A stretch of 43,335 bases of DNA from an uncultured Candidatus Saccharibacteria bacterium (lineage in GTDB: Bacteria; Patescibacteriota; WWE3; 9FT-COMBO-53-11). Position 1 is the stretch's first letter. Each line of letters starts with the position of its first letter. This document shows positions 1,184 through 33,513 of the stretch, in pieces. Both the position numbers and the translations under genes were made by a program. The DNA is taken from positions 1 through 43,335 of the forward strand of contig CAYPTJ010000008.1 in NCBI GenBank assembly GCA_964413845.1, written 5' to 3'. The notes beneath the pieces were generated by a model. That model saw nothing but the letters and a program-made list of their open reading frames with translations, did no database searches and was not told the DNA's origin.

Positions 1184-1364
1184 TTTCGTTCCCTCCTTTC
1201 AGGGTTCAAATAACCACGAGTCCCTCGTGGTAGGGTTATCAGAGTACTACGATTCCGATACTATTTGCTATTATAGGATAAATCGGTTTGGAAGTCAAGA
1301 AGCGGTGGTGCCCCTGGCAGGATTCGAACCTACAATCTTCTCCTTATCCCGCCTTTGGCGGGAG

Positions 1365-1464
1365 TAAGGCGTTCGCTTCGCTCACACCCGTTTCCTTCGG
1401 AAATAAGGCGTTCGCTTCGCTCACACCCGTTTCCTTCGGAAATAAGGCGTTCGCTTCGCTCACA
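1365..1464. repeat. tandem repeat, 39-bp unit x ~2.6
   Basis: TAAGGCGTTCGCTTCGCTCACACCCGTTTCCTTCGGAAA at 1365 and 1404, plus a partial copy at 1443. Confidence 0.95.
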
Positions 1465-1495
1465 ACCTTGTCCGCCTCTGGCGGATAGTGATATC

Positions 1496-1571
1496 TGGTG
1501 CCTCCGGCAGGATTTGAACCTGCAATCTTCGCCTTAGAAGGGCGCTGCTCTATCCGTTGAGCTACGGAGGC
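1496..1571 (-). tRNA. tRNA-Arg(TCT), intact, nested inside the outer tRNA-Arg
   Basis: 76-nt cloverleaf, anticodon loop CT-TCT-AA, encoded CCA. Confidence 0.95.
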
Positions 1572-1602
1572 CTAACAGATATCGCGTCGAAGGGAGCTGC
1601 TC

Positions 1603-1622
1603 CCTGCCTGCCGGCAGGCAGG
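1603..1622. repeat. perfect 20-bp palindrome CCTGCCTGCCGGCAGGCAGG
   Basis: Self-reverse-complementary. Variants occur near 6702, 17763 and 27585. Confidence 0.9.
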
Positions 1623-1791
1623 TATCCATTAAGCTACAGGGGCATCCTCATCTATTTTCGAGCTCTGCGAGAAAACAAGCTCTATGCTTATTTTAACGCA
1701 GTTTTGGTAATTTGTGAATTCCTGCGGACGAGGCCCGCAGCATCTTCCATTTCGCTCGCCTGGCTCGTGAAATGTTAAACTGCTCTTGTCA

Positions 1792-6807: not shown

Positions 6808-6909
6808 TGGTGGGCGGAGAGGGATTTCCTTCGACCACGCTCAGGATAAACTTCTCATCCCTCCCAGCCATGGTGAGCCTGCCGAATCCATGGTGGGCGG
6901 AGAGGGATT
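6807..6909. mobile_element. miniature element flanked by a 20-bp duplication that includes the tRNA-Leu 3' end
   Basis: ATGGTGGGCGGAGAGGGATT at 6807 and 6890. The interior has TCCTTCGA..GCTCAGGAT and ATGGTGAGCCTGCCGAATCCA. Confidence 0.65.
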
Positions 6910-6977
6910 CGAACCCTCACGCTTTCAACAAGCACGAGATCTTAAGTCTCGCGTGTCTGCCATTTCACCACCCGCCC
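6891..6977 (-). tRNA. tRNA-Leu(TAA)
   Basis: 87 nt with long variable arm, anticodon arm CGAGA-CT-TAA-GA-TCTCG. Confidence 0.95.
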
Positions 6978-9276: not shown

Positions 9277-9350
9277 TGGCTGGGAGGCTTGGATTCGAAC
9301 CAAGATTTCCAGATCCAAATTCTGGCGTGCTACCGTTACACCACCCCCCA
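9277..9350 (-). tRNA. tRNA-Gln(TTG)
   Basis: 74 nt, U1-A72, anticodon arm CCAGA-AT-TTG-GA-TCTGG, ends GCCA. Confidence 0.95.
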
Positions 9351-9356
9351 TTAAAG

Positions 9357-9605
9357 CTAAATTTTATCTTTGAATAATTTCTTTAGGAATCTCCTTCCCA
9401 CTCCAGATTTCAAATAATGTTCCCGACGCCCCGCTTCCTTAAGAGTTTGATATTCCTCCGAATGCAACAACTCCCAAGGTTTATATCTTTTCGTGAAGCG
9501 CATCTTTCCAGAATTATGCTCTTTCAGTCTTCGTTTAATATCATCTGTTACCCCAACGTAAGATTTTCTGGCCCGAACACTTTTTAATACATAAACGTGA
9601 TACAT
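9357..9605 (-). CDS. stand-alone GIY-YIG nuclease (YhbQ/UPF0213-like)
   Basis: VYVL...YVGVT...RRLKEHN...FTKRYKPW...RE..LKSG.GR signature. Confidence 0.92.
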   Translation of the reverse strand: MYHVYVLKSVRARKSYVGVTDDIKRRLKEHNSGKMRFTKRYKPWELLHSEEYQTLKEAGRREHYLKSGVGRRFLKKLFKDKI

Positions 9606-9606
9606 A

Positions 9607-9678
9607 CGCTGTCCTATCCGCCCCGCCTTTAGGCGGGCGAGATCTCGCCCGAAGGGCGGACCGTTAGACGACCCGGCA
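9607..9678 (-). pseudogene. orphan tRNA 5' half (Gln-like) with a 44-bp D-loop palindrome insert
   Basis: TGCCGGGTCGTCTAACGG|TAGGACAGCG after removing 9617-9660; D-stem GTCT/GGAC. No matching 3' half was seen. Confidence 0.6.
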
Positions 9679-9786
9679 ACGCCTTAAAACAATAATATCA
9701 GGAAAAAAAAGAAGCAACAAACGCCCTCCTTAGTATACAGGAAAGACGTACATCGGAACTTAGGTTTACACTAATTCAACGTTTCT

Positions 9787-17430: not shown

Positions 17431-17466
17431 TGGGCGATTAGCTCAACGGTAAGAGCGCTTCGTTTA

Positions 17467-17596
17467 TCCCACACCGAAGCAAAGCTTAGTGCGGGAGTAG
17501 CGACGAGGGTCTGTAGCTCAGCGGCAAGAGCGTTCGGCTTACATCCGAAAGGTCCCTGGTTCGAATCCAGGCAGGCCCACCAGACCTCGTCGCGTC
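17467..17596. mobile_element. 130-bp anticodon insert carrying a complete tRNA-Val(TAC)
   Basis: Begins TCCCAC..GCGGGAGTA and ends TCGCGTC; inverted repeat GCGACGAGG/CCTCGTCGC surrounds the cargo. Confidence 0.7.
17507..17582 (+). tRNA. tRNA-Val(TAC), intact, nested
   Basis: 76 nt, anticodon arm TTCGG-CT-TAC-AT-CCGAA, CCA. Confidence 0.95.
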
Positions 17597-17646
17597 CATC
17601 GAAGAGGTTGGGGGTTCAAATCCTCCATCGCCCACCATTAAACTTC

Positions 17647-33018: not shown

Positions 33019-33093
33019 GGCCCTGTCGTCTAGCGGTTCGGACACTGCCCCTTCAAGGCAGAAATACGGGTTCAACTCCCGTCGGGGCCACCA
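33019..33093 (+). tRNA. tRNA-Glu(TTC), with C at position 33
   Basis: Anticodon arm CTGCC-CC-TTC-AA-GGCAG, 75 nt, CCA. Confidence 0.88.
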
Positions 33094-33513
33094 TCCTTCG
33101 AGACGTTCGGCTGAGCTCAGTCGAAGCCCAGGCTCAGGATTGAAAATGTACTTCGTCTATATTCTCCTTTGTGATAAAGACTTTTTCTACGTTGGTTTAA
33201 GTGATAATCTTGAGGAGCGTTTACAAGATCATACCTCGGGCTATAGCCCATACACCCGTAGATTTAGTGAGATCGAACTTGTGCATAGTGAGCGATATCC
33301 TAAACGCTCCCAGGCAGAGAGGAGAGAGAAGCAGATCAAGGGTTGGTCGAAAGCAAAGAAAAAGGCTTTGATTGGTGGGGATAGGGAGAAGCTTAGAGAA
33401 CTAAGTAAATCTAAATCCTGAGCTTGGTGAAGGATCTTGCGGCGGGTACTATATGGTGAGCCTGCGAAGCAGCGAGCTTGTCGAGCTGTCGAACCATCCC
33501 GTCGGGGCCACCA
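33094..33513 (+). mobile_element. GIY-YIG cassette at the tRNA-Glu 3' end
   Basis: 17-bp direct repeat TCCCGTCGGGGCCACCA at 33077 and 33497; palindromic TTCGA..GCTCA / TGAGC..TCGAA ends. Confidence 0.75.
33146..33421 (+). CDS. stand-alone GIY-YIG nuclease (YhbQ/UPF0213-like)
   Basis: YFVYIL.C...YVG.S..L..RL..H...RE.QIKGWS..KK.ALI. Confidence 0.93.
   Translation: MYFVYILLCDKDFFYVGLSDNLEERLQDHTSGYSPYTRRFSEIELVHSERYPKRSQAERREKQIKGWSKAKKKALIGGDREKLRELSKSKS

Follow-up and report, generated by a model that had tools for sequence, protein, structure and literature searches.

An intact tRNA-Arg(TCT) gene lies inside the anticodon of a second tRNA-Arg gene in the stretch of DNA analysed here, a metagenome-assembled contig of 43,335 nucleotides referred to below as the window. 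The nested locus runs from 1643 to 1306 on the minus strand, where an outer gene of tRNA-Arg(TCT) type is split between tRNA positions 35 and 36 (35|36) by a 242-bp insert (1588-1347). On balance we think it probable that the outer gene is native but dead, the insert being a small mobile cassette that lacks ORFs and carries a replacement tRNA, and that only the inner tRNA functions. The arrangement stands out for its minimal form: an insert of 130-242 bp encodes no protein and sets a complete spare tRNA within the anticodon of the gene it would replace. It also recurs in several tRNAs and several genomes within a single family of ultra-small bacteria from groundwater.

The genome of the window (G000) is represented by a 610-kb assembly, corresponding to a 0.6-Mb genome, that is about 92% (91.8%) complete and contains no 16S rRNA; other G numbers denote relatives and C numbers the contigs of G000. 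The nested locus comprises the following elements:

1690..1718, minus strand: promoter-like site TTCACA-17-TAAAAT, lying upstream of the outer gene, from a consensus scan only
1589..1643, minus strand: 5' part of the outer tRNA-Arg(TCT)-type gene, positions 1-35, with acceptor strand, D arm, 5' strand of the anticodon stem and loop bases CTTC (32-35), read directly
1603..1622, no strand assigned: perfect 20-nt palindrome CCTGCCTGCCGGCAGGCAGG between the outer D loop and the 3' strand of the D stem
1347..1588, minus strand: 242-bp insert between positions 35 and 36, both junctions bridged by contigs from public runs
1572..1588, minus strand: left end of the insert, GAC followed by the 5' arm GCGATATCTG (1585-1576) and TTAG, read from the sequence
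1496..1571, minus strand: inner intact tRNA-Arg(TCT), called by ARAGORN and by Rfam RF00005 (71.8 bits)
1488..1497, minus strand: 3' arm CAGATATCAC of the clamping inverted repeat, overlapping the CA of the inner CCA
1471..1485, minus strand: hairpin TCCGCC-AGA-GGCGGA, belonging to the dispersed CCGCC-N3-GGCGG family
1365..1464, no strand assigned: 39-bp tandem repeat, 2.6 copies, 100% identical, its unit also found singly elsewhere
1347..1363, minus strand: terminal hairpin TCCCGCC-AAA-GGCGGGA, set flush against the insert's right boundary
1306..1346, minus strand: 3' part of the outer tRNA-Arg, positions 36-76, with TAA (36-38), 3' strand of the anticodon stem, variable loop, T arm, acceptor strand and ACCA

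The insert parts the anticodon loop as CTTC | TAA, with no base duplicated and none lost. In place, ARAGORN and Rfam both call the inner gene only, which is also the sole ARAGORN call with this anticodon in the G000 assembly. The 10-bp inverted repeat formed by the two arms pairs at 9 of 10 positions, and the resulting clamp helix is present in the predicted minimum-energy fold of the locus. A preliminary description had placed the insert, the inner gene and the minus-strand clamp with its second arm overlapping the inner CCA as listed here, and these assignments hold. Much of the insert is composed of repeats dispersed in G000: the CCGCC-N3-GGCGG hairpin family gives 86 matches on both strands, that is 43 sites in 610 kb, and single copies of the 39-bp unit occur at C46:6468-6497, at other places in G000 and in relatives. 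No plausible protein gene is found in the 242 bp, which likewise contain no transposase or nuclease gene (GIY-YIG included) and, by consensus scan, no promoter-like or terminator-like site. The exact cassette was not found a second time elsewhere.

Since the window is a metagenome-assembled contig, and repeats lie in the region where contigs of individual runs break, two strain alleles could in principle have been stitched into a false nested contig, an artefact to which we assign almost no weight. Logan contigs from four public DNA runs (X1, X3, X6 and X18), which may include the source sample of the window, were compared with it, and all four contain pieces identical to it. The right junction is carried by a piece covering 1150-1394 in X1, X3 and X6; a piece from 1435 to 1619-1623, found in X1, X3 and X18, spans the inner gene, the left junction, the outer anticodon stem and the palindrome; and a third, 1599-1800, is found in X1, X6 and X18. 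The contigs break at two places only, the palindrome and the 39-bp tandem repeat. Against an artefact stand both these difference-free pieces and the same architecture in the separately assembled genomes G003, G004 and G007. No uninterrupted outer Arg gene is present in the contigs of the four DNA runs, although contigs cannot prove its absence. A candidate joint from 1331 to 1548 through 25 other letters, in X18, was dismissed: one of its sides is 26 letters long and belongs to another sequence. The run search also listed RNA runs, two only, each with 0.04 of the sampled words.

Alignment of the inner gene with the joined outer halves gives 87% identity, with 10 of 76 positions differing, exactly the number that had been estimated beforehand. 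Six of these differences form three compensatory pairs (4:69, 6:67 and 29:41), two turn G:C into G:U (13:22 and 50:64) and two lie in loops (16 and 57). All 10 are compatible with tRNA structure, in line with the earlier view that the inner gene is a separately evolved allele and no fresh copy. At the three compensatory pairs the outer halves match each other and not the inner gene, and the outer 3' part alone aligns with the inner 3' half over 41 of 41 positions at 87.8% identity. With the halves complementary across all four stems, chance cannot sensibly account for the split outer gene. As for its anticodon, ARAGORN run on scripted joins returns TCT for a join at 35|36 and TCG for joins at 36|37 or 37|38, the latter as had been noted for a 36/37 boundary; the choice of 35|36 agrees with the nested Val and Leu genes of G000, which break at the same place. 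It had further been suggested that a spliced TCG product might be needed. This loses its ground, as G000 possesses a tRNA-Arg(tcg) gene at C52:2128-2203 and the outer gene is of TCT type by sequence; the joined outer gene is 75% identical to this TCG gene and 87% to the inner one. We also discarded the idea that the 5' half and junction are more conserved than the inner gene, the values between G000 and G004 being about 84% against 86% by eye.

A second insert, absent from the preliminary description, lies within the outer D loop. It is the 20-nt palindrome at 1622-1603, a copy of a dispersed repeat with four sites in G000 at no more than two mismatches; a search of 61 genomes gave about 20 matches of 22-25 nt, at 96-100% identity, spread over 7 of them. 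The claim that the outer gene still folds is not supported for the gene as it stands: with both inserts removed in silico, and only then, ARAGORN calls the joined outer gene as a 76-nt tRNA-Arg(tct), whereas with the palindrome retained it reports a misfolded 'tRNA-???'. In its intron mode (introns up to 400 nt, relaxed thresholds), the program did not call the outer gene and produced only spurious low-score calls.

The arrangement is not confined to arginine. The same window contains a second nested locus, organised as follows:

17432..17637, plus strand: nested tRNA-Val(TAC) locus, whose joined outer halves are called as Val by ARAGORN
17432..17466, plus strand: outer 5' half
17467..17596, plus strand: 130-bp insert
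17507..17582, plus strand: inner Val gene, flanked by arms GCGACGAGG / CCTCGTCGC
17597..17637, plus strand: outer 3' half

Here too a terminal hairpin (TCCCACAC...GTGCGGGA) is present, similar to the flush hairpin of the Arg insert and abutting, in this locus, the 5' half. With Leu(TAG), G000 has three nested tRNAs, every one of them cut at 35|36; each joined outer gene is assigned by ARAGORN the same anticodon as its own inner gene, and all three keep every stem, which fits recent insertion but is compatible with continued selection too. For Val, an empty site exists: G007 and G008 carry an uninterrupted, syntenic ortholog of the outer gene, located after Leu(GAG). The joined outer Val of G000 is 93% and 92% identical to these two orthologs, respectively, and 76% to its own inner gene, which is itself 93% identical to the Val gene of G002. 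For Arg, no clean empty site was found, the plain Arg(TCT) gene in the syntenic place of G002 being a mosaic with 87% identity to the outer gene and 84% to the inner one. For Leu(TAG), a family search based on the nested locus revealed no clear empty site.

Relatives display serial nesting and decayed outer halves. The polymorphism extends within a single genus, where G003 carries a nested Val and exceeds G007 by one Arg layer, while the Val site is empty in G007 and G008. Eleven outer genes or fragments were seen in the five genomes G000, G003, G004, G006 and G007, and 9 of these show additional damage or lack parts, the exceptions being the Val and Leu outer genes of G000; D-loop hairpin inserts, indels and missing halves are the types of damage seen in the others. 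All five Arg-type 5' halves or fragments seen (one in G000, two in G003, one each in G004 and G007) have CTTC as their last bases and continue with GACGCGAT. Searched for in 134 genomes of the class, the junction word YTTCGACGCGAT occurs beyond G000, G003, G004 and G007 as often as its reversed control, and a match in G009, at a locus without any tRNA, was rejected. A metagenome scan for CTTCGACGCGATNNCTG returned, among the matches listed, at least 80 loci, none with a tRNA near the motif; these are therefore chance matches and uninformative. An Asn-like 3' half was also observed at C3:54353-54392, its 5' partner being absent from the contig in a pattern search allowing up to 6 mismatches. 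In the largely open-access literature covered, we found no description of nested cognate tRNA genes.

Nested genes with complete stems raise the question of whether the outer halves are rejoined. In archaea and eukaryotes, tRNA introns and split tRNAs rely on a bulge-helix-bulge motif, the endonuclease EndA and the ligase RtcB. By analogy, the locus could represent a tRNA within a tRNA intron, with two concentric cloverleaves in the precursor, an endonuclease cutting out the insert and RtcB joining the halves, to yield two functional tRNA-Arg(UCU) isodecoders. The likeness lies in the anticodon-loop and D-loop inserts, in a possible exon-paired fold and in the presence of RtcB. In the predicted minimum-energy fold of the 338-nt Arg transcript (z = -6.7), the outer acceptor stem and T arm enclose the clamp helix together with the inner cloverleaf, and by eye no bulge-helix-bulge motif is visible at the insert boundaries; the Val locus is predicted to form a complete outer cloverleaf (z = -4.3). 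The intact stems of the three G000 outer genes speak in the same direction, as does the retention in a 0.6-Mb genome of RtcB (PF01139), an RNA ligase that can reunite tRNA halves, found as two contig-end pieces at C2:13586-14440 (E = 3e-116) and C54:3-176 (E = 3e-22). Folding energy by itself, however, says nothing about function, and several observations disagree with splicing. EndA (PF01974) has no match in this 91.8% complete bacterial assembly, while the same model matched 4 of 4 archaea among 14 control genomes. The boundary is at 35|36 rather than 37|38, the 20-nt D-loop palindrome would need removal as well, the 'intron' contains a complete tRNA whose anticodon (TCT, the C52 gene being TCG) would make the spliced product redundant, and the outer genes of relatives are visibly broken. 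Nor does an intron family account for the insert. It resembles group I introns of bacterial tRNAs as an anticodon-loop insert of a few hundred bases, yet the Intron_gpI model has no match at gathering score in the window and none at E <=10 in 1200-1750, where an Rfam search at this threshold retrieves the inner tRNA and noise only; the group I rule of a U before the intron and a G as its last base contrasts with C1589 and A1347, and the insert consists of a tRNA and repeats. Nothing indicates that the outer Arg is spliced, and we regard two functional genes as quite unlikely. If outer genes were spliced, they would constitute a new kind of bacterial tRNA intron.

A dead outer gene and a functional inner one are also what recombination debris would leave, with no dedicated mobile element involved. 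Foreign or paralogous tRNA DNA, taken up for instance by natural transformation, may have recombined through tRNA homology as an anchor and illegitimate joints, or tandem copies may have been trimmed by deletions. Fragments of tRNA genes, of many lengths, do flank tRNAs in this genome: Gln(CTG) and Cys are preceded by 5'-end pieces of 12 and 15 nt, and there are 3'-end pieces of 17-20 nt after Leu(TAA), Ser(GCT), Trp and Glu. Alleles appear mosaic between genomes, an unrelated Liptonbacteria contig has a perfect 37-nt 5' duplicate of tRNA-Ile(GAT), and the nested Arg locus adjoins a type IV pilus / T2SS ATPase gene whose best relatives are mostly Patescibacteria, at no more than 47% identity, which is the basis of the phylum assignment used here. 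The precision of the joints argues in the other direction: three independent genes of G000 are cut exactly at 35|36 without loss or duplication of a base, there are terminal hairpins flush with the boundary, and the same end, GAC plus palindrome, abuts the break in Arg, Val and Leu of G000 and four Arg junctions of relatives (two in G003, one each in G004 and G007). Such repetition is not expected of random joints, and we see debris as a possible but clearly less probable origin.

In the cassette reading, the insert would belong to a family of small hairpin-ended elements having 5'-GAC plus a palindrome at one end and often a flush hairpin at the other. Among the three nested cases, GAC is preceded by TTC, ATG and TTC; compact copies mostly have TTG or NTG at this place. 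As these bases differ, no single target word is evident. Read from the opposite end, TTA precedes the insert in all three nested cases by our own reading. Six copies of a GAC-palindrome-TAG module read TTG|GAC, and five lie 14-110 nt upstream of tRNAs; this module resembles a promoter, and the 'element end' may therefore be something else. Miniature IS200/IS605 and REP/RAYT elements have hairpin ends, lack the usual terminal inverted repeats, produce no target duplication and are moved in trans by a Y1 transposase. The insert shares with them the hairpin at 1347-1363, GAC and the arm at 1576-1588, the absence of duplication and the dozens of REP-like hairpins in the genome, which also encodes four ORFs matching Y1_Tnp (PF01797) above the Pfam cut-off, with HFH and RYIHLNP motifs. 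It differs from them in its tRNA cargo and in having no established target word, and TnpB was not found in G000. A second set of candidates consists of six mini GIY-YIG ORFs (PF01541) of 78-91 aa beside other tRNA genes of G000; tRNA fragments or duplicated 3' ends accompany five of them (at Gln, Glu, Trp, Asp and Ile), and none was noted at the sixth, beside Pro(CGG). No description of tRNA-associated mini GIY-YIG genes in Patescibacteria was found within the literature scope given above. Either the Y1 (IS200/RAYT-like) proteins or these nucleases are candidates for an enzyme that may mobilise the cassettes in trans.

Integrase islands offer another comparison. Tyrosine-integrase elements and islands reportedly occupy tRNA genes at anticodon-loop and T-loop sublocations, and elements of this type classically restore the 3' part of the gene they enter. 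As in the present loci, a tRNA gene is targeted, a working gene is kept, a displaced fragment stays in place and arrays of such fragments build up when entry is repeated. The nested inserts, in contrast, measure 130-242 bp, contain no integrase and have no core duplicated at their ends (no attL/attR), and the G000 cassette brings a whole tRNA instead of a 3' part, both old halves remaining around it. The two integrase genes of G000 (PF00589) are on contigs C6 and C22, neither of them inside the Arg insert.

Among nucleases, phage T4 SegB is described (PMC2330249) as a free-standing GIY-YIG homing endonuclease in a tRNA gene cluster. The site it recognises takes in a conserved tRNA-gene motif, that of the T stem-loop, and its selfish gene spreads with neighbouring tRNA genes, replacing the tRNA region of the recipient. 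The six mini GIY-YIG ORFs recall this system, as they adjoin tRNA genes and most are flanked by tRNA fragments. The Arg cassette differs in having no nuclease gene, the G000 proteins are putative nucleases of only 78-91 aa, and replacement in T4 proceeds by clean homologous repair, without nested halves.

According to the cassette reading, the outer Arg would be the older tRNA-Arg(UCU) gene of the lineage, now dead, which the 242-bp element entered cleanly at 35|36, bringing a different, intact tRNA-Arg(UCU) allele. Elements of this kind would have entered tRNA genes repeatedly in one Patescibacteria family. Entry into a single-copy tRNA gene would be survived only with a working copy of the same tRNA aboard, and it is for this reason that inner and outer genes would always share their anticodon; repeated entries would therefore build Russian-doll layers. 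A more speculative version, which we hold possible yet consider doubtful, is a gene-drive-like system of self-compensating tRNA cassettes: a nuclease or transposase acting in trans (mini GIY-YIG or Y1) would break the resident anticodon, the cassette would install a diverged allele that the enzyme cannot recognise, and serial overwriting would leave the Russian-doll remnants. A still bolder variant would have RtcB rejoin the outer halves, giving two tRNAs from one locus. If the cassettes are mobile, they would provide selfish DNA with a very compact way into an essential single-copy gene without host death, and reduced genomes with a route for horizontal tRNA gene replacement. For annotation, the consequence is that nested loci are misread, the inner gene alone being called, and that leftover halves can be mistaken for split or intron-bearing tRNAs.

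In the cassette reading, the promoter of the old gene may drive transcription of the entire locus. The usual enzymes that process tRNA 5' and 3' ends would then free the inner tRNA, the outer halves being by-products. A leader/trailer helix of about 10 bp may keep the inner tRNA folded apart from the look-alike outer halves. Helices of at least 8 exact pairs flank only 3 of the 42 tRNAs of G000, two of these three being inner genes. With one mismatch allowed, seven nested genes from five genomes have helices of 9-15 pairs that differ in sequence, and the four plain genes checked have 3-6 pairs.

On the minus strand between 1643 and 1306, the window reads as one complete tRNA-Arg gene in two pieces, separated by an insert that carries a second, intact tRNA-Arg:

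1643-1589, minus strand: outer 5' part, comprising acceptor strand, D arm, anticodon stem 5' strand and loop bases CTTC
1622-1603: second insert in the outer gene, a perfect 20-nt palindrome in the D loop
1588-1347, minus strand: 242-bp insert between the outer halves
1571-1496, minus strand: intact inner tRNA-Arg(TCT), the sole gene called at the locus by ARAGORN and Rfam
1485-1471, minus strand: small hairpin in the insert
1464-1365: 39-bp tandem repeat in the insert, 2.6 copies
1363-1347, minus strand: terminal hairpin of the insert, flush with the boundary
1346-1306, minus strand: outer 3' part, comprising TAA, anticodon stem 3' strand, variable loop, T arm, acceptor strand and ACCA

The left end of the insert consists of GAC, the arm GCGATATCTG and TTAG, and the complementary arm CAGATATCAC, which shares the CA of the inner CCA, follows the inner tRNA. 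The split and the insert given in the preliminary description are borne out, although the D-loop palindrome had been overlooked: ARAGORN recognises the outer gene as a tRNA only when this palindrome is also taken out. The proposed boundary between anticodon bases 35 and 36 holds as well: joining the halves there yields TCT in ARAGORN, and later joins yield TCG. Over 76 positions the inner and joined outer genes do show 10 differences, of which six form three compensatory pairs, two change G:C to G:U and two fall in loops.

A spliced TCG product had been considered possibly necessary; this is refuted, because the genome encodes its own tRNA-Arg(TCG) (C52:2128-2203; C numbers denote contigs of this assembly, the window being C8). 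ARAGORN finds 43 tRNAs in the assembly (610 kb, 54 contigs, about 92% complete), the Arg genes being TCT (inner only), CCT, TCG and two GCG. By sequence the outer gene is itself of TCT type, with 87% identity to the inner gene and 75% to the TCG gene. Arg(GCG) is present twice without any Arg(ACG), and the set includes Ile(TAT). The assembly lacks Ile(GAT) and Ala(TGC), probably along with an rRNA operon that was not assembled; it contains no 16S gene. A secretion/pilus ATPase adjoins the Arg locus, its best relatives coming mostly from Patescibacteria (CPR) metagenome genomes at no more than 47% identity.

Continuity across the split region, on which the preliminary description depended, was checked in public sequencing data. 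Twenty-two aquifer or groundwater metagenome runs contain 50% or more of the words sampled from 1150-1800, and contigs of four of them (X1, X3, X6 and X18) were compared with the window. Identical contig pieces cover 1150-1394 (X1, X3, X6), 1435 to 1619-1623 (X1, X3, X18) and 1599-1800 (X1, X6, X18), so that both junctions are bridged; contig breaks in the four runs are confined to the 39-bp tandem repeat and the palindrome. Because the sample behind the window may be among these runs, the comparison rules out a stitching error rather than documenting independent populations.

Two further tRNA genes of the same genome are organised in this way:

17432-17637, plus strand: nested tRNA-Val(TAC), outer gene cut at A35|C36
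17432-17466, plus strand: outer Val 5' half
17507-17582, plus strand: intact inner Val(TAC), different from the outer gene, within a 130-bp insert
17597-17637, plus strand: outer Val 3' half
C7:144-346, plus strand: nested tRNA-Leu(TAG) (locus L137), outer 144-179 and 298-346, inner 188-274

In all three outer genes the break falls between 35 and 36, with no base lost or duplicated, and ARAGORN gives each joined outer gene the anticodon of its inner gene. One end of each insert carries GAC with a palindrome arm, which reads on the same strand as the tRNA in Arg but on the opposite one in Val and Leu; the Leu insert terminates, on that opposite strand, in a compact GAC-palindrome-TAG module. 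At their other end the Arg and Val inserts have a flush TCCCGCC...GGCGGGA-type hairpin, and the inner Val is flanked by the arms GCGACGAGG and CCTCGTCGC. The nested tRNA-Arg is thus one member of a recurrent class, of which our literature search found no description.

Independent support for the nested Arg lies in the same architecture in separately assembled relatives, which we compared across 10 family genomes (this one included; G numbers denote relatives). The Arg gene sits in a conserved cluster Lys-His-Arg(TCG)-Arg(TCT)-Gly and is plain in G001 and G002. In G004 a 5' half and GACGCGATATCTG lead into a complete gene, after which come the complementary arm and no more than a decayed 3' remnant. 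The G007 locus starts with a short fragment of the anticodon stem and the GAC end; its complete gene belongs to the other allele type, lies between co-varying arms (GCGATGCTG / CAGCATCGC) and is followed by a 3' remnant. In G003, of the same genus as G007, two successive 5' halves precede the complete gene, each followed by GACGCGAT, and the first bears a D-loop hairpin insert of about 44 nt. The Arg junction word stands in tRNA context in 4 of the 10 family genomes; in the 124 class genomes outside the family it stays at control level.

The Val genes give a clearer picture, a filled-site/empty-site comparison that is polymorphic even inside one genus. G007 and G008 have, after Leu(GAG), an uninterrupted ortholog of the outer Val of our genome (93% and 92% identical); this outer Val shares only 76% identity with its own inner gene. 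The inner gene for its part has 93% identity to the G002 Val gene, which is preceded by the same flush hairpin and has a decayed GIY-YIG ORF upstream. A third Val allele is nested in G003 and G004 within outer genes with large D-loop inserts, and in G006 a complete Val is followed by two 3' halves that open with CAT (position 36), plus one more fragment that is less clear. Five genomes yielded 11 outer genes or fragments, all of them further damaged except the outer Val and Leu of our genome. These results confirm the nested tRNA-Arg and extend the observation.

The locus is best explained by a small cassette that replaced a native tRNA gene with the copy it carries. On this reading the anticodon shared by inner and outer genes results from selection, an insert into a single-copy tRNA gene being tolerated only when the same tRNA comes along. 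Splicing of the outer tRNA into a functional product appears improbable: the genome does encode RtcB, retained although EndA was not found in the roughly 92% complete assembly, and folding predictions give concentric cloverleaves for the transcripts, yet a functional split-gene reading of the outer Arg is unsupported. The RtcB ligase gene itself is split over two contig ends (C2:13586-14440 and C54:3-176).

Known kinds of tRNA insert were rejected. A group I intron gives no model match, and the insert follows C and ends in A; an EndA-type intron is at odds with the failure to find EndA in the assembly, the break at 35|36 and a content that is a tRNA with the same anticodon; and for an integrase-type island the insert is too small to hold an integrase and lacks a repeated core.

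Under cassette replacement, the inner gene would be the functional tRNA-Arg(UCU), released by read-through transcription and ordinary end processing, both presumed. A consensus scan places a promoter-like site (1718-1690) only upstream of the outer 5' end, and found no promoter-like or terminator-like site within the insert. At least eight exactly complementary leader/trailer bases occur in only 3 of 42 tRNAs of the genome: inner Arg, inner Val and Gln(TTG). With one mismatch allowed, the helix has 9-15 pairs of differing sequence in seven nested genes from five genomes, and 3-6 pairs in the four plain genes checked. This clamp may keep the inner tRNA folding apart from the similar outer halves, or be part of the cassette ends.

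The 0.6-Mb genome has four Y1-transposase (IS200/RAYT-like) ORFs of about 210-230 aa (C42, two on C35, C18), which are candidates for the mobilising enzyme, and it encodes two tyrosine recombinases; TnpB was not found in it. Six GIY-YIG ORFs (78-91 aa), likewise candidates, are present, every one adjoining a tRNA gene, and two of these loci lie in the window:

9277-9700, minus strand: tRNA 5' fragment with D-loop hairpins, 82-aa GIY-YIG ORF (9605-9357), tRNA-Gln(TTG)
33019-33513, plus strand: tRNA-Glu(TTC), 91-aa GIY-YIG ORF (33146-33361 matched), 17-nt 3'-end copy (33497-33513)

At Gln(TTG), Asp (C53) and Ile(TAT) (C22), which share one layout, a tRNA 5' fragment or pseudo-tRNA with D-loop hairpins precedes the ORF and a complete tRNA follows; the fragment is cognate for Asp, and a 12-bp inverted repeat encloses Gln(TTG), its first arm falling within the end of the ORF. 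At Glu(TTC) and the similarly arranged Trp (C15), the ORF is downstream of the tRNA, with a 17-18-nt copy of the tRNA 3' end beyond it, and no tRNA duplicate was noted at the ORF after Pro(CGG). The nearest precedent is T4 SegB, a GIY-YIG homing enzyme whose site includes the tRNA T stem-loop motif (PMC2330249).

Repeat motifs and partial tRNA copies are dispersed through the genome:

32758-32778, plus strand: one GAC-palindrome-TAG copy, 10 others lying elsewhere in the genome
1349-1361, 3069-3081, 6683-6695, 12307-12319, 37649-37661: examples of REP-like hairpins
6808-6977, minus strand: tRNA-Leu(TAA), 64-nt insert and exact 19-nt copy of its own 3' end from the T loop
C3:54353-54392, plus strand: lone tRNA-Asn-like 3' half, 87.5% over positions 36-75

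The GAC-GCGAY-palindrome-RTCGC-TAG module has 11 compact copies, against 0-1 in five shuffles, often 14-110 nt upstream of tRNAs. Two copies come immediately after an exact duplicate of the initial 12 or 15 nt of the tRNA downstream (Gln(CTG) and Cys), and in six others the sequence is TTG|GAC, resembling a -35 box; the module may act as a promoter, mark the end of an element, or do both. REP-like hairpins (CCGCC-N3-GGCGG) number 43 sites in 610 kb, and a longer palindrome, CCTGCCTGCCGGCAGGCAGG, is identical base for base in genomes of other families of the class. No 5' half matching the Asn-like 3' half was found on contig C3, and it may belong to another structured RNA. The 3'-end duplication at Leu(TAA) has similar counterparts after Ser(GCT) on C17 and, in two relatives at class level (L007, L016), after their Leu(TAA). 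In a Liptonbacteria contig (L064:283-442) the initial 37 nt of tRNA-Ile(GAT) are repeated without mismatch about 50 nt upstream of the complete gene, which suggests that other Patescibacteria also have partly duplicated tRNAs.
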